64,000 bases of DNA, taken from assembly GCA_039916665.1 (NCBI GenBank), contig JBDSKX010000061.1, forward strand, positions 57,055 through 121,054, written 5' to 3'. This document shows positions 1,299 through 60,579 of the stretch, piece after piece. The position numbers and the translations under genes were made by a program. The DNA comes from Chryseolinea sp. Lineage in GTDB: Bacteria > Bacteroidota > Bacteroidia > Cytophagales > Cyclobacteriaceae. Below the pieces are notes generated by a model, which saw nothing but the letters and a program-made list of their open reading frames with translations, was not told the DNA's origin and searched no databases. Numbering within the stretch: the stretch's first letter is position 1; the number at the start of each line of letters is the position of its first letter.

Positions 1299-3794
1299 TT
1301 ATTGTCCCAGTCTATCAAAACATCGCTTGAGATTAATCTTATCTTTCAAAACACCCTTAAATAAATCTCCTTTTTTGGCCAGTCTTTTACCAATGTTATT
1401 GATATTAAAATCAAGAGGATTCAACCCGTGCTTTAATTCTTTCCAGTCCAGCGGCGTCGATACAGAAGCTCCCGGTACTGGCCGCAGACTATACACTGAT
1501 GATAATGTCTGACCTCGACTGTTTTGGAGATAGTCAATATAGATCCGGCCTTTTCTTTTAATCAGGGAGCGTTGTATGGTAGCAACCTCTGAAATTATTT
1601 CGCTGGCTGTTATCGCGACAAGTTCGGCAAAAGGTTTTATTTGTTCGTAGGTGTAAAGGGCGTGCAACGGTACGTATATGTGAACTCCGGTGGCACCGGA
1701 AGTTTTGCAATAAGAGGAAGCGCCTGCTTTGTCGAGCACTTCTTTTACCGCGTGGGCAACATCTATAACTTCGTCAAATGAGTTTGATTCAGAAGGGTCC
1801 AGATCGATGATCAGATAATCGGGGTTATCTGGTTTCTTTATTCTAGAATTCCATGGATTAATTTCGATGCAACCGAGATTGTTGAGGTATAGCAGTGAGG
1901 CTTCGTTGTTGCAAAGGATGTATTCCACATTCTTGTTGCTACTTTGGGCATGTATCGATGCGTGTTTAACCCAGGAAGGCGCTGCATCTCCGGCATCCTT
2001 GTGAAAGAATCCCTTATCACTGATTCCATTTGGATTTCGTCGTAAGGATTGGGGCCTGTCTTTAAGATACGGAAGAATGTAAGGAGCAATTGAGTGATAG
2101 AAATCGATGACTTGTCCCTTAGTGTAACCTTCTTCCGGCCAATACACTTTTGAACGATTTGTGATTTTTACGGAATGTCCATTAACTTTTATAGACTCAT
2201 CTTCCTGATCTTCCTTTTTACTTCGAAGTCTTGGTTTCACCCCATTGGGTTTTGCCAGCGCTGTTTTCTTACGATCGACATGATCGACCTCCGACGCGTT
2301 CTTGTCAATGCGAAGTCCCAAAAAAATTGGATGTCTCATGATACCATCTTGTGTCAGTTCTGTATACTTCACATTGCAAACCAGGGCGGGTCTTAGCCAA
2401 GTAACAGAGGCGTTGGCGGGAATCTTTTCACTGAAAGGCGACGACGCTCGAACCAACGGCTGAAATTCTGTATACAAATCTTTTAAGACTTTCTCCGTGA
2501 AACCAGTCCCCGAATGTCCAATATATTTAAGTTTTCCTTTTTGTTTGATTGCAAGTATCAACGCGCCAAAATATTTCCGGCTCGCTCTGGGTGCTGTGTA
2601 CCCAGCAATGATCGCTTCCTGGGTGTTGGTATTTTTGATCTTCAACCAATTAGTTGTCCGTTTTCCTTTCTCGTAAGTGCTGAGTTTATGTTTCGCCATG
2701 ATCCCTTCAAGCTTCAGCTTCACAGCCTCTCTGAAAAACGCTATGCCATCAGCTTCGACGTGTTCTGAGTATCTGATGATGTCACTCTTTGGTATAATCT
2801 GGCTTAATAACTTCTTCCGCTCTATTAGCGCAAGGTTTGTTATATTTTTTCCTTCAAATTTCAGACAGTCAAACACATAATAGACGATCGCCAGTCGTCT
2901 GTTCTCTGGATAGTGTTGAAGCTTCTGAAAACTCGGTTTGCCGTCGTCATCGAGGATAACTATTTCGCCATCGAGCACGAACTTTCCTTTTATTTTTGTC
3001 AATTCGTCGGCAACGATCGGGTACAAGTCAATAAATGACAATCCGTTTCGCGAGTAAAGTTTAATTGACTTGCCATTAATTTCGGCGATAGCCCGGTAGC
3101 CATCCCATTTCATTTCAAATATCCAATCCAGATCATCAAATGCTTTATCGGTTAGCGTCGCTAACATCGGCGCAACGAAATCTTTGATCGTTCGCTCGCG
3201 TACGACAGCAGACCTTACGCTTAAAGATTTTGGCTTTGCGATCTTTTTAGCAGGACTATTATTTGATGCTTGCTCAATATCAAAGGCATCTTGGGCGAAT
3301 TCATCGCGATGTTTGATAAGCAACCAGTTGTTACCCTTACCATATTTTAATCGAACCAGTGCGAACGAACCGTTGAGCTTTCTCCCGTGGAGAACAAACT
3401 TTAGACTGCCCGACTCTAAACCTTTTCGAAGTCCCCTTGCGCCATCAGTTCCATACGCAGGATCGAGTTCATATATTCCTTTGTCCCAAATTTCAACAGT
3501 TCCAGCGCCGTAGTTACCCTCTGGTATTTTACCTTGGAACTTGCCGTACTCGAGTGGGTGGTCTTCCACCTGCACAGCAAGTCGTTTGTCTTTGGGGTTT
3601 AAAGACGGACCCTTCGGAATCGCCCAACTTTTTAATACGCCATCCAATTCAAGCCGGAAATCATAATGCAGATGAGTAGCATCATGCTTCTGGATCACAA
3701 AATTCAATGCTCCGTTTTTACCCTTTGCAGTTTTGCCTTTAGGTTCTGAAGTCTGCTTGAAATCCCTTTTGGTTTTATATGTCGTCAGTCCCAT
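1299..3794 (-). CDS. ligD: NHEJ DNA ligase D (phosphoesterase-ligase-polymerase)
   Basis: QKHDATHLHYDFRLE (PE), EMKWDGYRA (KxDG ligase), KTSGATGVHIYVP and IDYLQN (primase-polymerase); directly abuts the ku stop. Confidence 0.97.
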   Translation of the reverse strand: MGLTTYKTKRDFKQTSEPKGKTAKGKNGALNFVIQKHDATHLHYDFRLELDGVLKSWAIPKGPSLNPKDKRLAVQVEDHPLEYGKFQGKIPEGNYGAGTVEIWDKGIYELDPAYGTDGARGLRKGLESGSLKFVLHGRKLNGSFALVRLKYGKGNNWLLIKHRDEFAQDAFDIEQASNNSPAKKIAKPKSLSVRSAVVRERTIKDFVAPMLATLTDKAFDDLDWIFEMKWDGYRAIAEINGKSIKLYSRNGLSFIDLYPIVADELTKIKGKFVLDGEIVILDDDGKPSFQKLQHYPENRRLAIVYYVFDCLKFEGKNITNLALIERKKLLSQIIPKSDIIRYSEHVEADGIAFFREAVKLKLEGIMAKHKLSTYEKGKRTTNWLKIKNTNTQEAIIAGYTAPRASRKYFGALILAIKQKGKLKYIGHSGTGFTEKVLKDLYTEFQPLVRASSPFSEKIPANASVTWLRPALVCNVKYTELTQDGIMRHPIFLGLRIDKNASEVDHVDRKKTALAKPNGVKPRLRSKKEDQEDESIKVNGHSVKITNRSKVYWPEEGYTKGQVIDFYHSIAPYILPYLKDRPQSLRRNPNGISDKGFFHKDAGDAAPSWVKHASIHAQSSNKNVEYILCNNEASLLYLNNLGCIEINPWNSRIKKPDNPDYLIIDLDPSESNSFDEVIDVAHAVKEVLDKAGASSYCKTSGATGVHIYVPLHALYTYEQIKPFAELVAITASEIISEVATIQRSLIKRKGRIYIDYLQNSRGQTLSSVYSLRPVPGASVSTPLDWKELKHGLNPLDFNINNIGKRLAKKGDLFKGVLKDKINLKRCFDRLGQ

Positions 3795-4562
3795 TTATGA
3801 CGCCTTTTTAATGCTTGACTTTAATAGTGCCATGAGATCATTGGTCTTAGGGTGTGTCACTTTCATTGGCGACGGTGATTTTCCTTTGTGTCCTTTAGCT
3901 TTTGCCTTGATGTGCTTCATCAATTCAGCCGAGTAAGTATCTTTGAATTTGTCGATGTTGAATGACTTTGTAAGATGGTCAATTAAAGTCATCGCCATTT
4001 TCATTTCAGCGTCCTTTGGTTTTGTTTTTGAAGGACTTTTTAATTCTGAAATATCGCGGATCTCCTCTGCAAATCTTAAACGATTCAAAAGCAGGAAATT
4101 ATTGTAAGGTTTGATAAGGCAAAGGTGTTCTTTGCTGCGCAATACAAAACTTCCCAGCCCCGCCTTATTGGTTTTCTCAAGCGCATCATGAAGCAACCTG
4201 TAAGCTTTTTCGCCTGCTTTATCGGGCTCCAGGTAATAAGGTGTTTCGAAATAAATGCTGTCAACTTCCTGTGTATCGACGAAAGCTTCGATATCAATAA
4301 TCTTGCTCTTTTCAGGGTTTGCCTGAGCGAAGTCTTTCTCGTCGAGTAGGATGTAGTTGCCAGACATTTTGTAGCCCTTCACAATATCTTTCCAGGCTAC
4401 AACCTTTCCGCTAATCTCATTTATGCGTTGAAATTTGATACGGGCATGGTCTTTTTTATCAAGCATATCGAGATCGAGTGTACTTTCCTGTGATGCACTG
4501 TAAAGCTTCACCGGGATATTCACTAGTCCGAATCCGATGGCTCCAGTCCAGATAGATTTCAT
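3795..4562 (-). CDS. ku: NHEJ Ku protein
   Basis: MKSIWTGAIGFGLVNIPVKLY N-terminus, YFETPYYLEP, C-terminal DLMALLKSS; start placed at ATG 4562. Confidence 0.97.
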   Translation of the reverse strand: MKSIWTGAIGFGLVNIPVKLYSASQESTLDLDMLDKKDHARIKFQRINEISGKVVAWKDIVKGYKMSGNYILLDEKDFAQANPEKSKIIDIEAFVDTQEVDSIYFETPYYLEPDKAGEKAYRLLHDALEKTNKAGLGSFVLRSKEHLCLIKPYNNFLLLNRLRFAEEIRDISELKSPSKTKPKDAEMKMAMTLIDHLTKSFNIDKFKDTYSAELMKHIKAKAKGHKGKSPSPMKVTHPKTNDLMALLKSSIKKAS

Positions 4563-4588
4563 GTTCAACAAATTAAGTACTCAAGATT

Positions 4589-5335
4589 CTAACTCACAGG
4601 TAGCTCAATTTTTTCTTTTACCAGCGCTCGTGCGAGTGCTCTTTCGTCGGTAAGGTCGAGCCGCAAAGGTGTCATTGATATATAGCCATCGTCGACTGCC
4701 CAGCGATCAGTTCCTTCTTCTGCTGCTTCCAGGGGCACAACGGTGATCCAATAATGTTTTCGTCCCTTTGGATCTGTCCCGGGCATTACCTTGCCGTCAT
4801 ATTGACGAACGGATTGTCGGGTCCACTTTATTCCTTTCGCGTCAGGAGGAATATTAACATTGATCAAATTTACTTCTGTATTCTTTAAAAGTAATTCCAG
4901 TGTAGAGGACACGTAGCGTTCTAGATTTGGAAAATTAGGCTCTATGTCGCCGGCCGGAGTGCTTAGTGCAATGCCTTTAATGCCGAGTAACACTGCCTGC
5001 TTAGCGCCTGCAAGCGTACCTGAATGCCACATGGAATTTCCGAGGTTGAGGCCCAGGTTAATTCCACTTAGCACCACGTCGATCTTGGACAAATGAGTGC
5101 CTAACGAAACACAATCAGCAGGGGTACCGTTGACGCGATATGCATCAATGCTTCCGAAATTTATTGGCGCTTTTTTGTAAAACAGTGGTCGGGAGCCGGT
5201 TATCGCGTGACCCATAGATGACTGTTCAACATCTGGCGCTACAACCTTTACATTTCCGAATTTTGTGGCAATGTTAGCGAGTGACATGAGGCCAGGACTG
5301 TAGATCCCGTCATCATTTGTGATTAAGATATTCAT
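4589..5335 (-). CDS. surE: 5'/3'-nucleotidase SurE
   Basis: MNILITNDDG, GTPADCV, SGINLGLNLG, SGTLAGA motifs. Confidence 0.95.
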   Translation of the reverse strand: MNILITNDDGIYSPGLMSLANIATKFGNVKVVAPDVEQSSMGHAITGSRPLFYKKAPINFGSIDAYRVNGTPADCVSLGTHLSKIDVVLSGINLGLNLGNSMWHSGTLAGAKQAVLLGIKGIALSTPAGDIEPNFPNLERYVSSTLELLLKNTEVNLINVNIPPDAKGIKWTRQSVRQYDGKVMPGTDPKGRKHYWITVVPLEAAEEGTDRWAVDDGYISMTPLRLDLTDERALARALVKEKIELPVS

Positions 5336-5370
5336 ACGAAGGCAACACAAAAAATCATTCCATTGATATG

Positions 5371-5385
5371 TGGTACAGATTTGCA
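5371..5385 (+). promoter_or_regulatory. sigma54-like promoter motif TGGTACAGATTTGCA
   Basis: 30 nt before the lipid kinase ATG; one member of a recurring motif. Confidence 0.45.
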
Positions 5386-5415
5386 TGCATGATTATATAG
5401 CAATCGATCAAACAA

Positions 5416-6315
5416 ATGACATTTATCAAGGTTTTTCATAATCCTACGGCGGGTGAGGCGGAGCACACGAAAGAAACGCTTGTAGACGAAATCAAATCTG
5501 CAGGGTTCGACTGTAGCTATTCCTCTACAAAAAAATCGATCACTGAGAAAAGTATACCCGCTGAAACTGATTTTATTGCAGTGGCAGGTGGCGATGGTAG
5601 CGTACGTCGTTTAGCGGAGTACTTTTGTAATGAACCCGTTATTACAAAAAGACATCCTATTGGTTTGTTGCCGATGGGTACAGCCAATAACATTGCTATG
5701 ACTTTGGGAATTGGCGGTACCTCGAAGGAAATAATTGAGAGTTGGAAGCAGGGCAAAACGCAAAAATTTGATGTGGGCAAAGTTCATGGCCTGGAGAAAA
5801 ATCATTTCTTTCTCGAAGCCTGTGGTTTTGGCGTATTTCCCCGGCTTATTAAAAGGATGAGGAACGAGAAAATAGAAGGGGAGACACCTAATCCAGAGCG
5901 CGAGTTACAATTGGCGTTAAGTCGACTTCATGAAATCGTCCTCGAATACAAGCCCAAAGAATGTCGGCTTATTATAGATGGAGTTGAATACAATGGAAAG
6001 TATATTCTTGTCGAGATTATGAATATTAAATCCATCGGCCCCAATCTGAATATATCGCCAATGGGAAGTTTTGGAGATGGTGAGTTCGATGTTATTCTGG
6101 TATCAGAAGCGCAGCGGGAGCAATTGGCAAAGTATGTCCTCGACAGACTTCTTCACGGAAAGGAAACGCCATTCTTTTATACGGCATTAAAGGCAAAAAA
6201 AATTGAAGTGACATGGGCAGGAAAGCTTATGCATATAGACGATGCGTTGGTAGATGTTAGCGACAAGAGCATTGAAGTTGACGTCCTGCGTGAGATACTT
6301 AGTTTTCTAGTTTAA
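5416..6315 (+). CDS. Diacylglycerol kinase-family lipid kinase
   Basis: AGGDGS and LPMGTANNIA motifs. Confidence 0.9.
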   Translation: MTFIKVFHNPTAGEAEHTKETLVDEIKSAGFDCSYSSTKKSITEKSIPAETDFIAVAGGDGSVRRLAEYFCNEPVITKRHPIGLLPMGTANNIAMTLGIGGTSKEIIESWKQGKTQKFDVGKVHGLEKNHFFLEACGFGVFPRLIKRMRNEKIEGETPNPERELQLALSRLHEIVLEYKPKECRLIIDGVEYNGKYILVEIMNIKSIGPNLNISPMGSFGDGEFDVILVSEAQREQLAKYVLDRLLHGKETPFFYTALKAKKIEVTWAGKLMHIDDALVDVSDKSIEVDVLREILSFLV

Positions 6316-48714: not shown

Positions 48715-48984
48715 GGTCCGGGTAAACAATCCTGTTAAAATAATCAACCAAAATGAAATAGCCTACACGAAACAAAGTCTCCACGTGGGGATTCTGGTGT
48801 TTACCAGGAAGGCATTCTAGGGTAAGACGGGCAAAAAGTGAATTTCTCCTCCCTCGTGGCTGAATTTAATTTCGCAGACCCCAAATAATCTGGCAAAGTC
48901 ACGAAAAAATGGTCATACGGCCCTGTTCTGCAAGAGTACTACTTCAATGCGATAACTTTATTGAAAACAAGGAAATACGAACGC

Positions 48985-49376
48985 CGTATGAGGATCTCGA
49001 ATTCGGTGAACTTTCACTCAAGAATACCGAATCGTCTGAAGTAAAGAAATTTGCACAGACGATGATTAACGACCATACCAAAGCCGGCAATGAGTCAAAG
49101 GCTTTGGCACAAAGAGGAACATTTCTGTTCCTACCAACCTGAGCGCTGATCATCAAAAAAAGTATGATGAGTTCGCTTCGAAAAAGGTGGCGACTTTGAA
49201 AAAGAGTATACGGCACTCATGGTGAATGATCATGAGGAAGTTGCAGATGCCTTGAAAAAGAAATCGACAAAGGCGGCGACATGGAAATAAAACCTTGGGC
49301 CACGAAAACTTTACCAACAATTGAACATCACCTAATGATGGCTCAACAAATGGATAGGTCGGTCAGTTGCAAGTGA
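48985..49376 (+). pseudogene. DUF4142 protein relic (5'-truncated, three 1-nt deletions)
   Basis: VKKFAQTMINDHTKA / NISVPTNLSADHQKKYD / DFEKEYTALMVNDHE / WATKTLPTIEHHLMMA lie in successively shifted frames. Confidence 0.8.
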
Positions 49377-49420
49377 AACTTTATATAACGTACGATCATT
49401 TTCAAGTATTGACCCGCAAT

Positions 49421-49455
49421 AAAAAACTGCCCAGCCTTGAATGGACAGTTTTTTT
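49421..49455. terminator. Intrinsic terminator
   Basis: AAAAAACTGCCCA-GCCTTGAA-TGGACAGTTTTTTT. Confidence 0.65.
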
Positions 49456-49622
49456 AAGCACTCTTGTGATGGTAGTCATGTTGCTTGGGGTTATGCCCTG
49501 GGGTAAAAGTCTACAATGAGTTGTTATACGTGATGTTGAACCAGCGTCAATAAACGTTTTCGGAGCCATTTTAAAATCGTCATTCGATTTGCTGCAGGAA
49601 GTCAGACTTTAATGCGCGAGAA

Positions 49623-49811
49623 ATGATATTAACACTTTTAAGTTGCCTGCTTGGTCAGATGGCCGGTGTTTCAGTGATGGGCTATGACTACTTGCATCCA
49701 GACGAAAAATTGCTTTCATCCTGGTCAATGAAATTCTGGACAGGATACGTCATATCTTTAAGTTTTACGGGAATCATGTATCTGTATGCAACTGCGGATG
49801 GTCTGGGTTAA
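49623..49811 (+). CDS. Possible 62-aa membrane protein
   Basis: ATG start and two hydrophobic stretches; no recognised family. Confidence 0.35.
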   Translation: MILTLLSCLLGQMAGVSVMGYDYLHPDEKLLSSWSMKFWTGYVISLSFTGIMYLYATADGLG

Positions 49812-49863
49812 ATGGTGCCAGTCCTGTTGGCGAAGTCCGCTAATTCATAATTAATTCGCGTTT

Positions 49864-51942
49864 TCATTTCTTCTTCTCCGAAGGCAATGGAACGCACAGC
49901 GTAACATCTGGCGGAAGACGTTTACCAGCTACTTTAATGCGTTTACTATCTTTGGTAGCGATAGCTGGATTGTGATCAAAGAAGCCGAATGGCGCCAACG
50001 TAAAGCCTAGTGTATGTGTATTCATGATAGGCCACTCCTCGGGCCTGACGATGTGAGTAATTCCCAGGTTATACCAGACGACGAGATCCTTCCCCACTAC
50101 ATCTTCATTGTCTGACGTCCAACGTGTAATACCATCTTTTATTCCTCTCGTATTCGGATACTCGCCGGCAGGATGCATCTCGTCTTGTTTGAAAGTTGTG
50201 ACCCACACCTGATTTTCAAGGAAGTCGGCCATTTTTCTTGGACCAGATGGCGTGGCGGCGTAAGGCATTGCATTTGAACCCGGCATGATCACATAACTCT
50301 TCATCTGGCCCAATGCGTTTGTTTCTTTTGAATCGCCGATCATCCAATGTCTGTTGCTGGAAGGATTGAGGCTTCGTTGCCCATCGGCTTCTTTTTTAAT
50401 CAATGATGTTATCCGGGCAAAAGCGTTGCTGTGGGGATTCTTGATTGATGTTGGAAGTGTTACTGTGTTCATCTCTTCAACCATGTTTTCAGATCCATCG
50501 ACATCGAAGTCAAGTCGGAATGAAAAGAAATGTTGGTGATTTACTGCTTCGACATGGGGAGCGACCAGAGTTCCAAAATAATTTCCATTGAAAGTCTCAT
50601 CTGCGCCACCGGGCAGATCGTTGATACGATTCACACCTTTAATACCGACGATACCAGTCAGTTCAGCGCGAAGATCGATTGTGCCGTCTTCGTGAAATAT
50701 CCACTTCAAACCATAATCATAATTCCAGACTCGCGTGAAATATTTGACTACAAGGTTTCTGGCTTCTTGAGAAAACTTTCCGTGTCTCGTCAGCGGACCG
50801 CCATATTCTTCATACACTGCAATGACACTGTCGAGTTTGACTGGATCACCCGCTTCTGTATGAAATATTGATGAAATAAATTTTGAATTCATTGGAACAT
50901 CTGCACCTGCTTTCAATCCGTTCATACCTCCGGGTTCTGATTGCCCCAGTCTATATGCGCCAACGTCGTAGTAATTCCAAGCTGCGTGTGTCAGGTCCGT
51001 TGAGCCATAGGGAACATACATTTCAGCAACTGATGCGCGGTATAGTATTCTGCGCATTTGTCCTTCATCGTTAAAGCGAACGTCGCGAATAACAAGACCT
51101 TCGCGGTTGTCCATGGCAACGCGAAACGTCCAGTATTTGCTTTTTATTTCATAGCCTTCGATGGTAAAGTCGGTACCCTCCGGCTGTGTAATATTCAACG
51201 GCTTGTTGTTTGCCAGGGCTTTGTTTACAGTGGGATCGAAATAGCCGATGTCTTCGGGTTTATAATAACCTTTTCCACCATCATCCATCACCTTTAGCAC
51301 TTCACGAGATGTCAGGTCGACGTAAGCAACAAGTCCGTCGATAAGCAGTTCATGATATTTTTTATTGATGTATTGAGGCGTACAAATCATTTCGCGGTGG
51401 TCTGCAGGCGCCATGCCCATTTCACCGGCAAAAACATACGAAGTATGTACTGAGTCAGGGTGAATGTTCCGGCGCTTTAATCCTTCTAACCAGCGCGCAT
51501 CCTTTTTCAAAATCAAATCTGTGAGTGTGTCACCTTCAAGACCGCCTGCCGTAACTCCGGGGATATTGTTAAACGATTTTACACTTTTTGAATTGAGATC
51601 GATGACTGCTTCATACGTTTTGTTGTTGTTCCAATCATAAAGTACGGCAAAGGCTTCTCTTGTGAAGGTATCACCTGTTTTGTAATTCAGAATTTCATTT
51701 TTCGCAGGCTCTTTAAGATTAATGACAAAAAACCGATGGCTGGAATCGATTTTCTTTTCACTCAGAAGGAGTCTTTTTACACTGTTGATTTCATCGGATG
51801 AAAGAGGATCGAGTGGGTGCAGCGCAGAAGTGAACGCTTTTTCAGCTTTTAGAGGCGATGCAGTTTTCCTTTGTGAGCAATTCATCAACATCAACGCAAT
51901 GCAGGGGACAAAGAGGAATGAAGCGCGCATTTGATTCTTCAT
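49864..51942 (-). CDS. Copper/TPQ primary amine oxidase, lipoprotein
   Basis: HPLDPLS, NYYD (active-site Asp), WNYDY (TPQ consensus), NHQH and ITHIVRPEEWPIM (three Cu His); lipobox LMNC. Confidence 0.93.
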   Translation of the reverse strand: MKNQMRASFLFVPCIALMLMNCSQRKTASPLKAEKAFTSALHPLDPLSSDEINSVKRLLLSEKKIDSSHRFFVINLKEPAKNEILNYKTGDTFTREAFAVLYDWNNNKTYEAVIDLNSKSVKSFNNIPGVTAGGLEGDTLTDLILKKDARWLEGLKRRNIHPDSVHTSYVFAGEMGMAPADHREMICTPQYINKKYHELLIDGLVAYVDLTSREVLKVMDDGGKGYYKPEDIGYFDPTVNKALANNKPLNITQPEGTDFTIEGYEIKSKYWTFRVAMDNREGLVIRDVRFNDEGQMRRILYRASVAEMYVPYGSTDLTHAAWNYYDVGAYRLGQSEPGGMNGLKAGADVPMNSKFISSIFHTEAGDPVKLDSVIAVYEEYGGPLTRHGKFSQEARNLVVKYFTRVWNYDYGLKWIFHEDGTIDLRAELTGIVGIKGVNRINDLPGGADETFNGNYFGTLVAPHVEAVNHQHFFSFRLDFDVDGSENMVEEMNTVTLPTSIKNPHSNAFARITSLIKKEADGQRSLNPSSNRHWMIGDSKETNALGQMKSYVIMPGSNAMPYAATPSGPRKMADFLENQVWVTTFKQDEMHPAGEYPNTRGIKDGITRWTSDNEDVVGKDLVVWYNLGITHIVRPEEWPIMNTHTLGFTLAPFGFFDHNPAIATKDSKRIKVAGKRLPPDVTLCVPLPSEKKK

Positions 51943-52001
51943 AAGGTATTTCGGGATTGCCAGGACTAACGTGTTGTAATAATAACATTTATTTTTATTT
52001 G

Positions 52002-52018
52002 TGCGTAATACTTACGCA
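52002..52018. promoter_or_regulatory. NrtR-type operator 1: TGCGTAA-TAC-TTACGCA
   Basis: Perfect palindrome with GT-N7-AC core, upstream of an NrtR-family gene. Confidence 0.8.
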
Positions 52019-52035: not shown

Positions 52036-52052
52036 TGCGTAATATCTACGCT
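52036..52052. promoter_or_regulatory. NrtR-type operator 2: TGCGTAATATCTACGCT
   Basis: GCGT-N7-ACGC core, 34 bp from site 1; shares GTGCGTAATA with it. Confidence 0.75.
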
Positions 52053-52071: not shown

Positions 52072-52800
52072 ATGAAACAATATTCGCGAAGTCGATTTGG
52101 CGATTCCCTGAACGAAGTATCGGTAGACTGCGTCATGTTTGGGTTTCATGCGGATGAATTGAAAGTGCTTTTAGTTAAGGCTAAAGACTCTGATATATGG
52201 AGTCTGCCACGAGGCGGAATATTCATGAGAGAACCGGTAGAAGAGGCAGCTGTCAGGGTCTTGCAAGAAACAACGGGCATCGAAGATGTGTTTCTCCAGC
52301 AGTTTTACACATTTGGAGCGGGACAGCGAGATAAGTACATCATGCCTTCTAAAGGATCACGCCGACGGGGCTCTAAAGCAAAACGAGACGAGGAAAGTGT
52401 GATATCGATTGGGTACTATGCGCTGGTGGATTTTGAGAAGGTTGTTCCGAGTCTCACGGACATGTTTTTATGGTGTGAGATATCTGCTTTACCCGATCTG
52501 CAATTTGATCACAATGTTATGATTGAGTTGGCACTTGTGGCATTGAAGAAAGATCTTCGGTACCTGCCAATTGCCAAGCTGCTTCCCAGAAAATTCACTT
52601 TGAGGGAAATGCAGAAATTGTACGAAACGATACTCAACAGAAGTTTTGATCGACGCAATTTTCACAAACTCCTGATGGGTTATGATTTTCTGATCAAGTT
52701 ATCCGAAAAAAAAACAGGAACGGCGAATAAGTCTCCGCACCTCTACAAGATCAATTTTGAAAGATATGAAACAGCACTCCAGGATGGTATCTCATATTAA
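52072..52800 (+). CDS. NrtR/AraR-family Nudix-wHTH transcriptional regulator
   Basis: VSVDCVMFG, degenerate Nudix box, QFYTFG..RD, FDH, LLP.KFTL, DRRNFHK. Confidence 0.92.
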   Translation: MKQYSRSRFGDSLNEVSVDCVMFGFHADELKVLLVKAKDSDIWSLPRGGIFMREPVEEAAVRVLQETTGIEDVFLQQFYTFGAGQRDKYIMPSKGSRRRGSKAKRDEESVISIGYYALVDFEKVVPSLTDMFLWCEISALPDLQFDHNVMIELALVALKKDLRYLPIAKLLPRKFTLREMQKLYETILNRSFDRRNFHKLLMGYDFLIKLSEKKTGTANKSPHLYKINFERYETALQDGISY

Positions 52801-55309
52801 AGGACTTTTATCTCATCATTCCTACACGAAATTTGTTTTGATGTGTATCCCGATGTTGCTGTTATTCGGCGATGTGAATGCTCAGCATGCGACAACTCGG
52901 GGCAAAATAAAAGTGTTTGTCATTGCTGCCAAAGATCAATCTCATAGCGCTATGGTCGATCAGGCATCGGTAATGTTCAAAAAAATAGGCGATGATAACA
53001 GTTATCAAATTGATTTTAGTAAAGATACTGCACTACTTACTGCCGCCAATCTCGCCAAGTATGACGTAATAATCCAGCTTCACGTTTCACCGTTGAGCCT
53101 TGCACGAAAGCATCAATTTGCTATCCAGCAATTTATCTCAAAAGGTAAAGGGTGGATTGGAATCCACGCTGCAGGTGTCCGGGCAGAACAAGCCGACTTG
53201 GAAGCACAGGATCACTGGAAGTGGTATTCGCAATTATTAGGTGGAGCACGTTACACTCCGTTGCCTCCGGTTCGTGAGGGTCTTGTCACGATAGAAGCGA
53301 GTACCCATCCAGTTACAAAAAATCTTTCCACCAGTTTTGCTCTTACGGATGAGTGGTATTCATTCGACAAACAACTGGCATCAGACGCGATTATACTGGC
53401 GACTGCAGACGTGGACAAAAAAGGGAAGCAGCCTGTGATATGGATCAATCCACATTTTGACAGAGCGCTGTATATCGCCCTGGGGCACGATGCAAGTTCT
53501 TGCACGAATGCGAGCTATCATACTTTACTAAAGGATGCGATCTCCTGGGCAGCAATTCATGAAGGTGTCGAAGTACACAAGATGGAAGAGTTCACGAAAA
53601 GTTCAGGATCAATACTTGTCAATCAGGTGGGATATAATGCCAACTTGCCGAAGGCAGCAGTTTTTAAAACGAAAGCAAAACTCAATGGTGATATAACTTT
53701 CAGTATTGTCGACGCGCTGTCCTTCGAACCAGTCTACTCTGGAAAAATCAAAACATCCGAGCAAGTTCTAGATTGGAATGATGCATGGTATAGTCAGATC
53801 GACTTTAGTGAATTTAAAAAACCGGGGTTTTATAAGATCAAGGCTGAGATTGATCATCAGACGTATGAATCATTCAATTTTGAGATTGGAGATCATTTGT
53901 TAGCAAAGACATTGATTCCTGCTATCGCAAATTTCTTTGTCGGCCAAAAAGCAAATTCGAAAGAGGAGTTATCGGGCGACGAACATGTTAGGCTATTCGG
54001 GAGTGATAAAACGGTAGACCTGCGCGGCGGATGGGCTGATGCATCAGGTGATGTGAGCAAGTACTTCTCTCATCTTGCTTATACCAATTTTATGAGTCCA
54101 CAGCAAATACCGCTTGCAGACTGGTCGATGATTCAGTCTGTGGAATCGATTCCCTCTGTATTAAGGGGATCAGTCGTAGAGGACTCGTTAAGGCTTGAAG
54201 CATTCTATGGTGCTGATTACATTATGAAATCTCTTTCGACTGAAGGCTATTTTTATATGACGCTGTTTTCATATTTCAAGAAAGACCCCAGTGAACGCCG
54301 TGTCGTTGGACTTTTGGCCGACAGCAAAACAACGTCAGAATACCAAGCGGGGTATCGTGAGGGTGGTGGCATGGGTGTCGCGTGTCTTGCACGTATTTCG
54401 ACATGGAAGCAAAAAAGTACGTACTCGCAAGCTCAATATTTGAAGGCCGCTGAAAGAGCGTTTGAACATTTGCAAAAAAATAGCATTAAGTATATTGATG
54501 ATCATAAGGAGAATATTATTGATGATTATACTGCGTTGATGGGTAGCACTGAACTGTGGATTGCCACCAAAAACTTTTCATATCGAAGGGAAGCAAGATT
54601 GCGCGCAAAGAAATTAGCGGACAGGATATCAACCGAAGGATTCTTCTGGAGCAACGATGAAAAGACACGCCCGTTCTGGCATGCATCGGATGCGGGATTG
54701 CCAGTCATCTCATTGATCAGATACCTCCAAGTCGAAACTGATGCGCCAATGCGAGAAAAAGCGTTGGAGACGATCAAGAAGTTTATTGATTATCAGTTGC
54801 GGGTTTCTAAAGAGACCGTTAATCCATTCCGATATCCAAGACAGACATTTAAGGTGAACGGTGAGATCAAGAATGGATTTTTTATTCCACATGAGAATGA
54901 GAGCGGATGGTGGTGGCAAGGTGAAGACGCACGTATCGGATCCCTGGCAAGTGTGTTACTGAGGGGCGGCCGCCTCGTGTACCCTGAAAATAACGCACTG
55001 GGCGTCAGATCAGATATCGGAGAAGTGGCGAGCAGCCTTGTGGGTTGGGTGCTGGGTTGTAATCCTTATGAAGTGTGTATGATGTATGGATATGGTCAAA
55101 TCAACGTTCCTTACATGGCAGCAATGTATGGCCATGGTTCCGGAATAGGCGGAATATCAAACGGCGTAACCGGCGCCAACGGTAAGCCTGATGGTTCTGG
55201 GATTGATTTCAAATACGAAGACAACGGCAACGAATGGCGCTGGAGTGAGCAATGGATTCCGCATTCTGCGTGGTTTCTTCAGGCGATTACGGCCATTGAA
55301 TCCAAATGA
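52784..55309 (+). CDS. Secreted ThuA-like + Ig + GH9 fusion (exo-beta-glucosaminidase-like subgroup)
   Basis: Signal-like LLLFGDVNAQ; ThuA motifs GWIGIHAA and DEWY; ILVNQVGY; DLRGGWADASGDVSKYFSHL...PQQIP; WRWSEQWIPH. Confidence 0.85.
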   Translation: MVSHIKGLLSHHSYTKFVLMCIPMLLLFGDVNAQHATTRGKIKVFVIAAKDQSHSAMVDQASVMFKKIGDDNSYQIDFSKDTALLTAANLAKYDVIIQLHVSPLSLARKHQFAIQQFISKGKGWIGIHAAGVRAEQADLEAQDHWKWYSQLLGGARYTPLPPVREGLVTIEASTHPVTKNLSTSFALTDEWYSFDKQLASDAIILATADVDKKGKQPVIWINPHFDRALYIALGHDASSCTNASYHTLLKDAISWAAIHEGVEVHKMEEFTKSSGSILVNQVGYNANLPKAAVFKTKAKLNGDITFSIVDALSFEPVYSGKIKTSEQVLDWNDAWYSQIDFSEFKKPGFYKIKAEIDHQTYESFNFEIGDHLLAKTLIPAIANFFVGQKANSKEELSGDEHVRLFGSDKTVDLRGGWADASGDVSKYFSHLAYTNFMSPQQIPLADWSMIQSVESIPSVLRGSVVEDSLRLEAFYGADYIMKSLSTEGYFYMTLFSYFKKDPSERRVVGLLADSKTTSEYQAGYREGGGMGVACLARISTWKQKSTYSQAQYLKAAERAFEHLQKNSIKYIDDHKENIIDDYTALMGSTELWIATKNFSYRREARLRAKKLADRISTEGFFWSNDEKTRPFWHASDAGLPVISLIRYLQVETDAPMREKALETIKKFIDYQLRVSKETVNPFRYPRQTFKVNGEIKNGFFIPHENESGWWWQGEDARIGSLASVLLRGGRLVYPENNALGVRSDIGEVASSLVGWVLGCNPYEVCMMYGYGQINVPYMAAMYGHGSGIGGISNGVTGANGKPDGSGIDFKYEDNGNEWRWSEQWIPHSAWFLQAITAIESK

Positions 55310-55351: not shown

Positions 55352-55762
55352 ATGAGAAAATTTCTTATAGCAGCGCACGGTAGTTTTTCATCCGGTATAA
55401 AATCGTCATTAGACTTTATTATCGGTGAAACTAAAAATCTATACATCATCGACGCGTACATCGATAACAATAAATCAATCGAAGATGAACTTCAGTTGAT
55501 ACTGATTGATCTTAAGCCGGACGACGAACTTATTGTGATGTCGGATCTTATGGGTGGAAGTATTACAAACCAGATTCTCAGATTCGCGTTGCAACGAAAT
55601 GTTCACATAGTTTCAGGAATCAGCCTGGGGTTGGTAATTGAAATTGTTATGGGCGATGAGTTAGTTTCGGCCGGAGAAATTATTGAAAACGCAATCATAA
55701 ATGCACGAGAGCAAATGGTTTATGTGAATAAATTGATTAATAAAGAAAACGACAATGCTTAA
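55352..55762 (+). CDS. PTS mannose/fructose/sorbose family EIIA
   Basis: LIAAHG (phospho-His), SDLMGGSITN. Confidence 0.93.
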   Translation: MRKFLIAAHGSFSSGIKSSLDFIIGETKNLYIIDAYIDNNKSIEDELQLILIDLKPDDELIVMSDLMGGSITNQILRFALQRNVHIVSGISLGLVIEIVMGDELVSAGEIIENAIINAREQMVYVNKLINKENDNA

Positions 55763-56231
55763 ACTATTAAGGATCGACGACAGGCTGGTTCACGGGCAGG
55801 TGGCTTTTACGTGGGTGCCATCTTTGGGGATTGATTGTTTGTTAGTCGCCAATGATAAAGTGGCGCGCGATGACTTTCAGAAAATGACACTAGGTTTGGC
55901 TAAACCGGCGAGCACAAAGCTCATTATTAAATCTGTAGGTGATGCCGTTCTTTTTCTGAATGATGAAAAGAACAAAGGTCTGAAGATACTCACGCTTGTC
56001 AACTCAGTAGTTGACGCCTTTGCACTCGCGAGCGGAGTTTCCCAAGTTCAATCGATCAACTTCGGAGGAATTCGGGCAAGAGAAGGTGCAAAGCTAATCT
56101 CGAAGGCTATCGCAGTGACAGAGCAAGATGTGACGTTGATCAGGGAATTGGTTCGACGAGGCATTGAATTGGAGATACGCCAGGTTCCATCGGATCAAAA
56201 ACAGAAAGTTGAATCTTTTATTCAAAATTAG
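55755..56231 (+). CDS. PTS mannose/fructose/sorbose family EIIB
   Basis: LRIDDRLVHGQV (phospho-His), INFGG, RQVP; 8-nt overlap with EIIA. Confidence 0.95.
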   Translation: MLKLLRIDDRLVHGQVAFTWVPSLGIDCLLVANDKVARDDFQKMTLGLAKPASTKLIIKSVGDAVLFLNDEKNKGLKILTLVNSVVDAFALASGVSQVQSINFGGIRAREGAKLISKAIAVTEQDVTLIRELVRRGIELEIRQVPSDQKQKVESFIQN

Positions 56232-56257
56232 ACTAGCCTTAACGCCATGAACACGCT

Positions 56258-57826
56258 ATGATAATGAGCTATTTTATGATCACGCTCGTAGCCATGTTCG
56301 GGCACCTGGAAGATTTTCTAGGAACTACGTTGCTGAGCCGCCCATTGGTTCTCGGTCCCCTGGTTGGACTTGTACTTGGTGACTTTCAGCAAGGAATTAT
56401 TATCGGCGCAACGCTAGAGCTGATCTTTATGGGCAACATCAAGGTAGGGGCGGCAATTCCACCGGACGTTATCACGGGTGGGGTACTGGGTACAGCATTC
56501 GCAATCATTTCAGGCAAGGGCGCTGCCGTTGCTCTTGGACTCGCAGTGCCAATTTCAATTTTGGCGGAAATGTTGCTGAGCAGCTTGTTTATTTTTCGCG
56601 CGACCTTTAACAAAAAATTTAATCAATATGCTGAAGAGGGTGATCTTCGTAAGCTCGAGTGGCTTCACATATTCTCTGGACTACTGAAGCCATTGCTTAT
56701 GGGGCTTATCGTTTTTCTTGCCTTACAACTCGGCGCTGAAACAATGAAGACCGTACTTGACAGCATTCCGGAATGGGTCACAAGGGGTCTGCAGGTTGCG
56801 GGCGCAATGTTGCCTGCACTTGGATTCGCGCTCTTGATGAGCGTAATGTTTAACAACCGCGTTGCTCCATATTTTTTTCTAGGATTTATTCTCAGTGGAT
56901 ATCTCAAACTGCCGATGATTGCAATAGGTGGGTTGGGACTTATTCTCGCATTGTTGATAGTACGTTTGAAGACCGAAAACTCCGAGGAGGAGGGAGACGG
57001 ACAAACAGATTCGCCGACACCCGATAACTCAGTGCTTTCGAGGCAAGACATCAGAAAGATATTCTTCAGATCACTTGCCCTCGAGGCAAATTTCAATTTT
57101 GAAACCTGTCAGAATACCGGTTTTGCATTTTCAATAGCCCCCGCGTTGAAGAAAATATATCGAACAAAAGAAGCGATCTCGATAGCGATGAAAAGGCATT
57201 TGCAATTCTTTAATACGAGTCCTTACGGATCAACGTTCATTTTAGGTATGTCTGCGGCGATGGAAGAACAGAACGGAAAGTCTGATGATTTTGATCCTGA
57301 ATCCATCAATTCCGTCAAGCTTGGCTTGATGGGTCCGTTAGCAGGTGTGTTTGATTCTTTGTTTTGGGGAACGTTAAAAGTGATTGCTGCAGGTGTAGGC
57401 ACATCGTTGGCACTAAAAGGAAGCTTCGTTGGGCCTTTGCTATTTATCATGATTTATAATATCCCGCATATTTTAATTCGATACAACCTTACATTTCTTG
57501 GCTATCGTCAGGGGAATAAATTTCTCCAGAAAATGGCGTCGGGGCATATGATGGATAAACTTACTTCTGGTGCGGCGATAGTAGGTCTCATGGTAGTGGG
57601 TGCAATGCCTTCATTATTAATGTCGGTCAAAACACCGTTGTCGTATGGTGCAGACTCGAACATTCAGTTACAGCAAATACTGGATCAAATCGTGCCAGGA
57701 ATAATACCTCTTGCGTTGACATTCCTGTCTTACTTTCTTTTGAAACGAAACATTAAACCTACTTACATTTTGCTGAGTCTGCTGATCCTTGGATTCATCG
57801 GAAGCGCTTTGCATGTGTTGTCTTGA
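56258..57826 (+). CDS. PTS mannose-family fused EIIC-EIID permease
   Basis: IIC: RPLVLGPLVGLVLGD...LELIFMG...GAAIPPD. Acidic linker. IID: RHLQFFNT, KLGLMGPLAG..DSLFWGTL. Confidence 0.93.
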   Translation: MIMSYFMITLVAMFGHLEDFLGTTLLSRPLVLGPLVGLVLGDFQQGIIIGATLELIFMGNIKVGAAIPPDVITGGVLGTAFAIISGKGAAVALGLAVPISILAEMLLSSLFIFRATFNKKFNQYAEEGDLRKLEWLHIFSGLLKPLLMGLIVFLALQLGAETMKTVLDSIPEWVTRGLQVAGAMLPALGFALLMSVMFNNRVAPYFFLGFILSGYLKLPMIAIGGLGLILALLIVRLKTENSEEEGDGQTDSPTPDNSVLSRQDIRKIFFRSLALEANFNFETCQNTGFAFSIAPALKKIYRTKEAISIAMKRHLQFFNTSPYGSTFILGMSAAMEEQNGKSDDFDPESINSVKLGLMGPLAGVFDSLFWGTLKVIAAGVGTSLALKGSFVGPLLFIMIYNIPHILIRYNLTFLGYRQGNKFLQKMASGHMMDKLTSGAAIVGLMVVGAMPSLLMSVKTPLSYGADSNIQLQQILDQIVPGIIPLALTFLSYFLLKRNIKPTYILLSLLILGFIGSALHVLS

Positions 57827-57836
57827 AATAAAAGTG

Positions 57837-59576
57837 ATGGATAATTTGAATTATAAATCGGGAGTGGCAGAAATAAAAGGAGTTGGAGCATCACCGGGTA
57901 TTGCCATTGGAAATGCTTTTCGTTTCCGAAAAGAAGTGGTCCGTGCTACTGAATTGAAATTATCGGATGACTCAGAAGTCAAACGTGAAATTGAAAAGTT
58001 CGATGCGGCAGTTAATATATCTGTGCGAGATGTTAAGCAAGTCATTGAGCGCGATTCATCCCTAAACCGCGAAGTAGTAGATGTGCTTGAAAGTCATCTT
58101 GAATTTATAACCGATCCGCAGCTGAGGTCGGACGTTGTTTCCCGGATTACGGATCATAAAATGTTCGCTATCGACTCCGTTGTAAAAGTTATTGAACTGA
58201 CAACTGTTGCCTTCAATGATCTGGATAGTGACTACATGCGCGCAAGAGCTGCCGACGTTCAGGATATCGGTGAACGCATACTGAGAAACCTCAGTTATTC
58301 GTATTCCGGTAAGCTCGAAATAAATGAGAATTCTATATTGATTGCCGAAGACATTTCGCCATCCGATACGATAGCGCTGGATCTTAGTAAAGTTATGGGA
58401 TTTGCAACCCAACTTGGAAGCCGAACGTCGCATACCGCCATTCTGGCAAGATCTAAGAATATTCCTGCGGTACTTGGATGTGGCGAAATTCTTGCGTCGG
58501 TCAACGATGGCGATCTCCTGATTGTTGATGGACTAAATGGAATCGTCCACGTTAATCCACCAGCGCATTTGTTGAGATACTATCGCGAACGGAAAGAAGC
58601 GCATGAACGGCAAGCAGACGCGTTAAAATCTTTGAGACACCACCTTGCAGTAACTGCTGATGGACGTCAAATTAAATTGCTGGCGAACATATCGTCAGCA
58701 GACGATCTTGAGGATTCTTTTGAATATGGTGCGATGGGTGCCGGGCTATTCAGAACTGAAATGCTATTCATGAATAGAACTTCATTTCCTTCCGAGCAGA
58801 GGCAATTTGAATGCTATAAACAGGTTGGGGTAAAGTCGAGGGGAAAGGAAGTCACCATACGAACGATGGATATCGGTGGCGATAAACCACTTGATTATTT
58901 TGAGATTCCAAGGGAAGACAATCCATTTTTAGGCTATCGCGGCGTACGAATTTCGCTTGATAGAAGAGATGTTTTTATTACTCAACTCCGCGCAATTCTG
59001 CGCGCATCCATATTTGGCAACTTCAGGATTATGTTTCCGATGATATCGGGTCTTGAAGAGTTGCTCGCAGCGAAGTCGATGGTGGAGGAGGCCAAATCGC
59101 AGTTGAAAACTGAGCAGTTGGAGTTTGACAGGCAGATTCCCCTTGGTATTATGATTGAAGTGCCATCCGCGGCAATAGTGGCAGATATCCTCGCGCCCGA
59201 AGCCGACTTCTTTAGCATTGGCACGAATGACTTGTGTCAGTATACTTTGGCAGTAGATCGCGGTAATGAAAAGATCAAGTCCTTATATGAGCCACTAAAT
59301 CCTGCTGTGTTGAGATTGATCAGTTTCGTGATCGATGCGGCGCGTCAAAATAATATCGACGTTGGAATGTGTGGTGAATTCGCGGCTGATCCAAAATCGA
59401 CGTTGTTGTTGATTGGGATGGGGCTGCATGAATTTTCGATGAGTGCGTCGTCTATACCGCGCGTTAAAAATGTAATACTCAACCATACTGAGGCGAAGGC
59501 GCGGGAAATATGGCGCAACGTGAAGACAATGCGTCGCACCGACAGTATTATAAAATATTTAGAGGCCTTAATATGA
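57837..59576 (+). CDS. ptsI: PTS enzyme I (PEP-protein phosphotransferase)
   Basis: ASPGIAIG, SRTSHTAILARS (phospho-His), GLFRTE, RTMDIGGDK, NPFLGYRG, FSIGTNDL, GMCGE. Confidence 0.97.
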   Translation: MDNLNYKSGVAEIKGVGASPGIAIGNAFRFRKEVVRATELKLSDDSEVKREIEKFDAAVNISVRDVKQVIERDSSLNREVVDVLESHLEFITDPQLRSDVVSRITDHKMFAIDSVVKVIELTTVAFNDLDSDYMRARAADVQDIGERILRNLSYSYSGKLEINENSILIAEDISPSDTIALDLSKVMGFATQLGSRTSHTAILARSKNIPAVLGCGEILASVNDGDLLIVDGLNGIVHVNPPAHLLRYYRERKEAHERQADALKSLRHHLAVTADGRQIKLLANISSADDLEDSFEYGAMGAGLFRTEMLFMNRTSFPSEQRQFECYKQVGVKSRGKEVTIRTMDIGGDKPLDYFEIPREDNPFLGYRGVRISLDRRDVFITQLRAILRASIFGNFRIMFPMISGLEELLAAKSMVEEAKSQLKTEQLEFDRQIPLGIMIEVPSAAIVADILAPEADFFSIGTNDLCQYTLAVDRGNEKIKSLYEPLNPAVLRLISFVIDAARQNNIDVGMCGEFAADPKSTLLLIGMGLHEFSMSASSIPRVKNVILNHTEAKAREIWRNVKTMRRTDSIIKYLEALI

Positions 59577-59839
59577 TATCAAAAGACTACTTGATTACGG
59601 CTGCGGAAGGAATTCACGCCCGTCCAGCGACAACATTGATCAGACTTGTTAAACATTTCAAGTCTGCGGTCATCCTTAGGAAAGGTGATAAGTCGATCCG
59701 TTTGAATAGTATTCTTAACATCCTGACTTTCGGTGCGAAAGGTGGCGACACAGTCACGGTAATTGTCGAAGGTGAAGATGAGGTAGCGGCAGCAGCGTCA
59801 ATCGATAAATTTTTCAAAGAGGAATTAAAGCAACTTTAA
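59573..59839 (+). CDS. ptsH: Phosphocarrier protein HPr
   Basis: GIHARPA (His15), NSILNILTFG (Ser46 region); ATGA overlap with EI. Confidence 0.95.
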   Translation: MISKDYLITAAEGIHARPATTLIRLVKHFKSAVILRKGDKSIRLNSILNILTFGAKGGDTVTVIVEGEDEVAAAASIDKFFKEELKQL

Positions 59840-59853
59840 TTGATTTTACATCC

Positions 59854-60579
59854 ATGAAAATAACAATAGAGAAAAGTGAACGTGAATTTGATATAGCCGC
59901 TGCGTGGCGGATCATCGGACAGATGCTTGAAAAGCCCAATGCTGTTATCGGCCTGTCAACGGGACAAACGACGTTGAACATGCATGCCGTAGTTTCTGAG
60001 ATCTACGCCAAGTATCGATTTGACGTTTCACGTGTGACCTTGTTTAATGTCGATGAGCTAACGAACCTTCCGCGAGAGTATTCCGGCAGTTGTTACACAA
60101 TGATATTGAATCAGATTGCGGCGCCTTTGGGAATTCCCAATGAAAATTTCATTATGCCTCCAACGCTTTCAAACGATTTTGAGGCAGAATGTTTGCTTTT
60201 TGAAAAGAGACTTCAAGAACGTGGTGGTGCGGATCTGCAAATGCTTGGTCTTGGTGCGAATGGACATATTGGAATCAATCAACCAGGAACACCCTTTGAA
60301 AGTGAGACATGGGTTTCTCCTATGGATCCCGACTTTGAGGCGCGCGTCAGAAGGGAGACTAACGTGCCTGCAGATCACATTTTGGGCGGGCTTACGAGAG
60401 GCATCAAAAATATCATGCATACCAGGAAGCTGATATTGATTGCGAAAGGCAAACATAAAGCGGCAATGGTGAGGCAGGCAGTACTTGGTCCGGTGACTAC
60501 GGATATTCCCGCTTCGGTTTTGCAGCTGCATCCCAATTGCGAGATACTACTGGACGCTGATGCAGCGTCGGAACTATAG
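59854..60579 (+). CDS. nagB: Glucosamine-6-phosphate deaminase-like protein (atypical)
   Basis: GLSTGQT, FNVDE, LGANGHIGINQPG, PASVLQLHP. Confidence 0.82.
   Translation: MKITIEKSEREFDIAAAWRIIGQMLEKPNAVIGLSTGQTTLNMHAVVSEIYAKYRFDVSRVTLFNVDELTNLPREYSGSCYTMILNQIAAPLGIPNENFIMPPTLSNDFEAECLLFEKRLQERGGADLQMLGLGANGHIGINQPGTPFESETWVSPMDPDFEARVRRETNVPADHILGGLTRGIKNIMHTRKLILIAKGKHKAAMVRQAVLGPVTTDIPASVLQLHPNCEILLDADAASEL

Follow-up and report, generated by a model that had tools for sequence, protein, structure and literature searches.

A 64,000-nucleotide stretch of DNA from a soil Chryseolinea (contig JBDSKX010000061.1, positions 57,055 to 121,054 of the forward strand; hereafter the window) carries a gene for a copper-dependent primary-amine oxidase with a topaquinone (TPQ) cofactor and, divergent from it, an operon for a phosphotransferase system (PTS) of amino-sugar-like character. 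We find that the coupling of the oxidase with the PTS cluster is real as genome organisation in one subclade of the enzyme. What would an amine oxidase do beside a sugar operon? The best explanation as a whole is that of an active, lipidated periplasmic oxidase that would be co-repressed with the amino-sugar operon and would harvest ammonium; our confidence in it is about evenly balanced. Within one genus, a probably membrane-tethered oxidase with a remodelled cofactor surround has remained next to a rare, self-contained amino-sugar PTS cluster despite rearrangement and a patchy pattern of inheritance. If co-regulation by a sugar-sensing NrtR-type repressor holds, amine oxidation would be linked to the scavenging of amino sugars or chitosan, and one operator pair would govern two divergent promoters in a Cytophagales bacterium. 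To our knowledge, the roles of bacterial TPQ oxidases beyond aromatic-amine catabolism are poorly known.

Is the product a genuine amine oxidase? The open reading frame starts with ATG and encodes 692 aa. The Pfam model Cu_amine_oxid matches over its whole length (386.3 bits, cut-off 27; profile positions 1-407 of 407), an N2 domain is also found, and residues 48-661 align with the phenylethylamine oxidase of Arthrobacter globiformis (AGAO, PDB 1av4; E 7e-89). The E. coli amine oxidase (ECAO) aligns with an E of 4e-81, and human AOC1 and AOC3 match in the D4 domain only, as distant relatives (E about 1e-26 to 1e-28). The catalytic set is complete and invariant in 118 homologues. It comprises the TPQ precursor Tyr408, the base Asp326, the copper ligands His469, His471 and His630, and Tyr312, the conserved Tyr that stabilises TPQ by a hydrogen bond. 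The first-pass annotation had called all catalytic motifs intact, and the profile, structure and homologue comparisons bear this out. The best named homologue, from Chryseolinea lacunae, is 74% identical. The closest NCBIfam model is NF008559, a primary-amine oxidase subfamily, with 605.1 bits for a cut-off of 651, which places the oxidase close to that subfamily yet outside it. An AlphaFold2 model built from a 22-sequence clade alignment was poor (mean predicted local distance difference test score 45.7, predicted template modelling score 0.42) and was not used. The enzyme is a further member of an established family, and its variant features are a probable lipid anchor, Arg and Trp beside TPQ, and a Cys-bearing tail.

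The surround of the cofactor was described at first pass as unusual (TRVWNYDY), and the wider comparison agrees. The published TPQ consensus is T-x-x-N-Y-D/E (PMC3382800). The context in the oxidase is FTRVWNYDY, with the precursor Tyr408 inside N407-Y408-D409-Y410. The position of the consensus Thr is occupied by Arg404, the Thr standing one residue earlier at 403, so that the consensus is not matched. Two residues before Tyr408 lies Trp406, a position held among 121 homologues by Glu in 58, Gly in 33 and Trp in 24; the Mucilaginibacter-type proteins have Glu here and Met at 404. In a maximum-likelihood tree, Trp406 is confined to one 30-member clade (support 100), and the sister clade has Gly. 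An inner Trp clade of 24 members (support 100) has Phe412 further changed to Ile, Leu or Val. The order of events read from the tree is Gly406 to Trp at the base of the clade, then the Phe412 change in the inner, PTS-linked clade. The equivalent pair of residues contacts ligands and differs between two human paralogues, being Leu468/Leu469 in VAP-1 and Val458/Tyr459 in diamine oxidase (PMC7144023). By analogy, the Trp406 change sits where substrate preference could be affected.

Could Arg in place of Thr and a bulky Trp by the cofactor Tyr have left the protein catalytically dead, or with a role other than oxidation? The unmatched T-x-x-N-Y consensus and the NF008559 score below its cut-off would fit such a loss. 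We consider it very improbable. The Thr is a feature of the consensus and not a catalytic residue, and Arg or Lys at 404 is common to the whole group of Chryseolinea-type relatives. The copper ligands, the base Asp, the TPQ-stabilising Tyr and the N-Y-D-Y core are those invariant in the 118 homologues, an aromatic residue at -2 is present in the active human diamine oxidase (PMC7144023), and conservation within the clade is high (73% mean column identity in alignment A1).

How widely does the association with the PTS hold? Among 40 genomes of the genus, the PTS gene for EIIC-EIID is present in 11 and the amine oxidase in 16, and in a set of 150 genomes from 132 genera of the family, EIIC-EIID occurs only in this genus. 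All 11 PTS-bearing genus genomes have the oxidase, as against five of the 29 PTS-less ones (Fisher p = 2e-6, a value calculated over close kin, which are non-independent). Two gene orders are found. In type A, the oxidase is divergent from regulator-ThuAGH9-PTS-NagB; this order occurs in G000 (the window's own genome), G012, G006, G002, G202 and L031. In type B, found in four genomes and two metagenome contigs (G003, G016, G004, G008, L029, L045), ThuAGH9 is divergent from PTS-NagB, no regulator gene is present, and the oxidase lies at the far end of the operon, convergent with nagB. The flanking genes vary from genome to genome. Over the loci with enough context, an inner-clade oxidase adjoins the PTS cluster in 12 of 13, and the exception is L033, a metagenome locus. 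The outer Trp-clade loci L034 and L042 and the sister-clade loci are not linked to the PTS. Sister-clade oxidases stand between fabF-like and mlaFE/ispG genes, and in the window's genome this locus is split, with no oxidase in it. Conservation of the neighbourhood, put forward at first pass as a check, thus holds for the inner clade in both gene orders, and fails for the sister and outer clades and for G195, a genome discussed below. Two oxidase loci have features of their own. The orthologue of G202 (L027, G202:C27 about 3380-5456; 80% identity, type A) is interrupted, in two pieces with one in-frame TGA, and is either a pseudogene or an assembly error. At the sister-clade locus L020 (G005:C432, 4281-11130), an inserted SusC/SusD pair separates the fabF-like gene from the oxidase, which follows the pair in the same orientation.

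Trees bear on the history of the two gene sets. In a tree of IspG from 35 genus genomes, the type A genomes are spread over four or more lineages, among genomes that carry neither the oxidase nor the PTS set, and G012 groups with type B genomes (support 100). In the oxidase tree and in a tree of concatenated EIIB, EIICD and EI, G012 groups with G006 and G002 (supports 99 and 98). The position of the window copy differs between the oxidase and PTS trees, with weak support. Measured against this one marker gene, the oxidase and the PTS seem to share a history unlike that of IspG, as if they had been gained and lost as a unit.

In the control region, the start codons of the oxidase and the regulator are 129 bp apart. 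Operator 1 lies exactly 60 bp from the oxidase ATG (51942), and as noted at first pass the distance is short; the site proves to be a perfect palindrome, whose zero-mismatch form is unique in the 6.3-Mb genome. Operator 2 ends 19 nt ahead of the regulator ATG. A genome-wide search with the operator pattern found, beyond the local pair, only background (51 sites with two or fewer mismatches, 51 in the control). The pair is kept at its 34-bp spacing in five related loci (G012, G006, G002, G202, L031). Between operator 1 and the oxidase start is an AT-rich block, also present in L033, which lacks the regulator and is among the seven loci in which an oxidase abuts operator 1, and in L032. G195, which has no oxidase beside the operon, lacks this block ahead of operator 1. 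We infer that it is the -7 element of the oxidase promoter, which would put operator 1 over the positions -12 to -35. A scan for sigma-70 promoters and terminators gave no hit in the spacer and detected no terminator beyond the oxidase gene; the scan is not built with Bacteroidota promoters in mind.

A cognate operator lies in the probable promoter region of the oxidase and is conserved in the type A loci and in L033. In the latter, one near-perfect operator is retained 52 bp upstream of the oxidase ATG, and neither the regulator nor any PTS gene is present in the 3.9 kb upstream or the 10 kb downstream of that oxidase; a different palindrome, GCCAT-N10-ATGGC, is seen upstream of operator 1 (L033, about 3860-3885), at the expected place of operator 2. 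A ThuA-type gene stands divergent to the oxidase in L032, from which the regulator gene is missing, and of the operator a degenerate half is left. The oxidase probably shares the repressor sites of the operon in this genome. From the geometry, co-regulation is plausible for gene order A only. The control region shared by oxidase and PTS operon, as proposed at first pass, therefore stands for the type A loci with their conserved operator; order B has neither the regulator gene nor the operator.

How would such a system work? The exported oxidase, lipidated at Cys22, would turn amines of the form R-CH2-NH2 into aldehyde, ammonium and H2O2 in the periplasm. It belongs to a subclade confined to Chryseolinea, in which the TPQ surround is remodelled (Arg404, Trp406 and the changed Phe412) and which travels with the NrtR-regulated ThuA-GH9/PTS/NagB cluster. 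The promoters of oxidase and operon would stand back to back in the 129-bp spacer, mostly filled by two 21-bp NrtR-type operators, with the oxidase-proximal one abutting the probable -7 element. Given that position, the repressor would most likely silence both directions until a sugar effector releases it, as in the Bacteroides AraR system. The most likely role would then be the harvest of ammonium from primary amines alongside amino-sugar catabolism.

Several observations weigh against this picture. To the non-independence of the genome counts is added the promoter itself, since the exact Bacteroidota -7 consensus TAnnTTTG is absent on the oxidase side of the window spacer; an exact box occurs only in G006, on the operon side. 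G195 has the regulator, two operators (23 bp apart) and the PTS operon without an adjacent oxidase, and the operators therefore belong first to the operon. The type B loci lack an NrtR gene, and no operator stands close to their oxidase or PTS genes; the regions upstream of these two share no word of nine or more bases and no motif. No aldehyde dehydrogenase or amine transporter is encoded near the oxidase. The adjacency could also be a product of chance. The outer-clade loci L042 and L034 lie beside PadR-MacB pairs, the MacB being 62-64% identical to the MacB that neighbours the G195 operon.

Is the adjacency, then, historical only? A PTS island could have landed by a resident oxidase locus, or the two could have been inherited and lost together, the operators serving only the regulator-PTS operon and the oxidase acting as a general nitrogen scavenger. 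The G195 operon, the lack of a shared operator in type B, the housekeeping context of the sister-clade oxidases and the PadR-MacB neighbours that connect outer-clade oxidase loci with the G195 operon locus all speak for it. So does the wide occurrence of Bacteroidota amine oxidases without a PTS: 60 more distant metagenome oxidase loci, searched by local tblastn, gave no match to PTS, NrtR, ThuA-GH9 or NagB. If this is right, the enzyme is an ordinary nitrogen-scavenging oxidase that happens to adjoin an interesting operon. We regard such an account as a real possibility, though on balance a doubtful one. The proximity has outlasted a rearrangement that carried the oxidase from one end of the operon to the other; L033, having lost the regulator and PTS genes as neighbours, keeps an operator upstream of its oxidase; the AT block and the operator on the oxidase side are conserved; and the phylogeny of oxidase and PTS is shared and unlike that of IspG.

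What regulates the type B loci? Their best NrtR homologue (53% identity) was considered as a trans-acting regulator and set aside, as it sits elsewhere with tandem operators of its own and is likely a paralogue with another target. At that locus (L109, G003:C1:8027000-8040000, 5860-5910), TGCGTA-N5-TACGCA occurs twice, 34 bp apart, and divergent to the paralogue are genes for a GSDH-PKD-cytochrome c-CBM6 protein and for a TIM-barrel protein like xylose isomerase. The type B loci have conserved elements of another kind. A palindrome, GTGTGTTTTTTCACACA, stands about 110-150 bp upstream of the oxidase start (L013-L016, L029), with short CTCCTGGCTCCTGG-type repeats further upstream, and could be the site of a different regulator that replaces the NrtR operator. 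In the spacer between the divergent ThuAGH9 and EIIA genes (L013, 3184-3329, and L016), a conserved inverted repeat, TGACAA-N10-TTGTCA, is found where type A has the NrtR gene and operators. The PTS operon of the type B genomes seems to have switched regulator.

After a basic and then a hydrophobic stretch, the N-terminus of the oxidase reads L-M-N-C22, which had been taken at first pass as a lipobox. That reading survives in part: the Asn at -1 departs from the canonical [LVI][ASTVI][GAS]C, while Cys22 is kept in 22 of 22 clade members and 12 of 12 genus orthologues, several of which carry a canonical LAGC, MSAC or LSAC. In the Mucilaginibacter-type homologues, which are more distant, an ordinary signal peptide takes the place of the lipobox. 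The oxidase is probably a lipoprotein, lipidated at Cys22. The residues that follow (SQRK) are basic or neutral, unlike the acidic surface-export signal of Bacteroidota, and this suggests a lipoprotein that faces the periplasm. At the other end of the protein, Cys683 (49894-49896) in the C-terminal tail co-occurs with Cys187 (51380-51382): the Trp clade and most of the Gly clade have both, and the Mucilaginibacter-type proteins lack the two Cys residues as well as the tail. This co-occurrence makes a Cys187-Cys683 disulfide likely, which may pin the tail to the D3 domain.

Which amine would be oxidised? The primary amines on which TPQ oxidases act carry the amino group on a CH2 carbon. In glucosamine and chitosan the C2 amine is on a secondary carbon, which these enzymes generally do not accept, so that direct oxidation of either is unlikely, and glucosamine itself is an unlikely substrate. 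There is no PaaA or PaaC in this 100%-complete genome; with no aldehyde dehydrogenase next to the oxidase, an E. coli-type use of phenylethylamine as a carbon source is not indicated. The release of ammonium from amines in the periplasm, alongside its release from glucosamine 6-phosphate by NagB, is the most economical reading.

Another possibility is that the cluster generates a substrate for which the Trp-clade oxidase has become specialised. This might be a sugar or glycan with a CH2-NH2 group (a 6-amino-6-deoxy sugar, or a 1-amino-1-deoxy-ketose of the fructosamine type) or a companion amine of chitosan-rich material; or the product of interest might be H2O2, for periplasmic polymer cleavage with ThuA-GH9. 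Both the oxidase and ThuA-GH9 are predicted to be exported, and the remodelling of the active site coincides with the linkage, with Trp406 at the base of the clade and the changed Phe412 in the PTS-linked inner clade, at positions whose equivalents contact ligands and differ between VAP-1 and diamine oxidase (PMC7144023). We think this unlikely: Trp406 is older than the linkage, since L034 and L042 in the outer clade have it but no PTS; glucosamine carries its C2 amine on the wrong kind of carbon; and no lytic polysaccharide monooxygenase or other H2O2-using enzyme is found in the cluster. The related proposal that a Trp-clade, lipid-anchored oxidase was recruited into the amino-sugar regulon, to act on a glycan-derived or companion amine of the chitosan type or to supply H2O2 for oxidative cleavage, appears to us similarly improbable. 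If true, it would be the first TPQ amine oxidase in a glycan-utilisation system under a sugar-sensing Nudix-type repressor.

How does the oxidase with its probable ammonium role compare with known systems? AGAO is a full-length homologue that shares the D2-D3-D4 layout, likewise lacks the additional N-terminal domain found in the E. coli enzyme, and has an identical catalytic set (NYDY, the Asp base, HxH plus His, and the TPQ-stabilising Tyr). It differs in being a soluble, cytoplasmic enzyme of a Gram-positive, whereas the Chryseolinea oxidase has a predicted signal peptide and lipidation Cys; Thr378 and Gly380 of AGAO are Arg and Trp here, and in the Chryseolinea protein five residues are inserted after Gln334 and the C-terminus is extended by a tail of 31 residues that includes a Cys. 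TynA, the E. coli enzyme, is likewise a periplasmic copper/TPQ amine oxidase of a Gram-negative, and lets E. coli use amines as a nutrient (PMC4640556). TynA, however, is soluble, has the extra N-terminal domain D1 and passes its phenylacetaldehyde on to feaB and paa, while the neighbours of the Chryseolinea oxidase are a sugar regulator and a PTS operon, and no aldehyde dehydrogenase gene lies next to it. Human diamine oxidase has Val-Tyr before Asn-TPQ, near the Val-Trp found here (PMC7144023), yet AOC1 and AOC3 are homologues too distant, matched in one domain, for an inference on substrate to be transferable.

For the regulation, the nearest parallel is BtAraR of Bacteroides thetaiotaomicron, an NrtR-family repressor that is released by arabinose and binds tandem 21-bp semipalindromic sites (PMC4666351). 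Both systems have a Nudix plus winged-helix gene within its own operon and two tandem sites of about 21 bp. The operators differ in sequence, the Chryseolinea core being TGCGTAA-N3-TTACGCA, and the genes are those for a PTS, GH9 and NagB instead of arabinose genes; an amine oxidase would be an unprecedented member of such a regulon. Literature searches found no characterised copper amine oxidase from Bacteroidota, and nothing relevant on a Chryseolinea PTS, on lipoprotein amine oxidases or on an amine oxidase together with a PTS.

Table 1. Features of the oxidase gene, the divergent spacer and the neighbouring operon (positions in the window)
Feature	Position	Strand	Basis or remark
Copper (TPQ) primary-amine oxidase gene, EC 1.4.3.21	49864..51942	-	Open reading frame; Pfam PF01179 E 2e-115; full-length AGAO/ECAO structure alignment
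Signal peptide ending in lipobox-like L-M-N-C22	51877..51942	-	Cys22 invariant in alignment A1, present in all genus orthologues
TPQ motif T403-R-V-W-N-Y408-D-Y410	50713..50736	-	Aligns with TTIGNYDY of AGAO; Trp406 clade-specific
Catalytic base Asp326	50965..50967	-	Aligned with catalytic Asp of NYFDTGEY in AGAO; invariant in 118 homologues
Copper ligands His469-Gln-His471	50530..50538	-	Aligned with HQH of AGAO; invariant
Third copper ligand His630	50053..50055	-	Aligned with GLTH His of AGAO; invariant
C-terminal tail beyond the AGAO-aligned core, PPDVxLC683VPLP	49867..49959	-	Invariant P678, D679, C683, V684, P685, L686, P687 (alignment A1)
AT-rich block between oxidase start and operator 1, probable -7 element of the oxidase	51978..52001	.	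Conserved in 7 of 7 loci with the oxidase abutting operator 1
Operator 1, perfect palindrome TGCGTAA-N3-TTACGCA (7+3+7), TGCGTAAtacTTACGCA	52002..52018	.	Zero-mismatch site unique in genome
Operator 2, imperfect copy of operator 1, 34 bp downstream	52036..52052	.	34-bp spacing conserved in relatives
NrtR/AraR-type Nudix + winged-helix regulator	52072..52800	+	Pfam NrtR_WHD E 1e-18, NUDIX, AraR_C
Exported ThuA-CelD_N-GH9 fusion, exact start uncertain	52757..55309	+	Pfam; predicted type I signal peptide ending VNA, followed by QH
Mannose-family PTS EIIA, EIIB and fused EIIC-EIID	55352..57826	+	Pfam; nearest NCBIfam models of Aga/Man type, all below cut-offs
Enzyme I, probably from ATG 57837, and HPr	57789..59839	+	Profile matches
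NagB-like glucosamine-6-phosphate deaminase homologue	59854..60579	+	Pfam; NCBIfam NF001684 E 1.5e-55, below cut-off

The sugar-PTS operon reported at first pass is real. Divergent from the oxidase, its genes are, in order, those for the regulator, ThuA-CelD_N-GH9, EIIA, EIIB, EIIC-EIID, Enzyme I, HPr and the NagB-like protein. HPr (59573-59839, + strand) has the motif GIHARPA and an ATG that overlaps the stop of Enzyme I (ATGA), and it completes the PTS phosphorelay; it is easily overlooked, its longest open reading frame beginning upstream at 59510. With a PTS of Aga/Man type, a NagB-like deaminase and an exported ThuA-GH9 protein, the operon is amino-sugar-like in its make-up. The regulator has six paralogues in this genome, and NrtR paralogues number 6-10 per genome across the genus. 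G006, G002 and G202 (L018, 14543-15307; L019; L028) have an extra stand-alone ThuA gene between ThuA-GH9 and EIIA, which the window does not have. SusC/SusD pairs, a FecR-like gene and a fucosidase lie upstream, consistent with a Bacteroidota genome. Downstream of the oxidase, a gene-poor stretch of 1.1 kb (48748-49863) has no intact open reading frame of at least 100 aa. Within it, 48900-49330 (+ strand) holds frameshifted gene remnants with the motifs KKFAQTMINDHTKAGNE and FEKEYTALMVNDHEEV in different frames, which we take from these motifs to be DUF4142-like.

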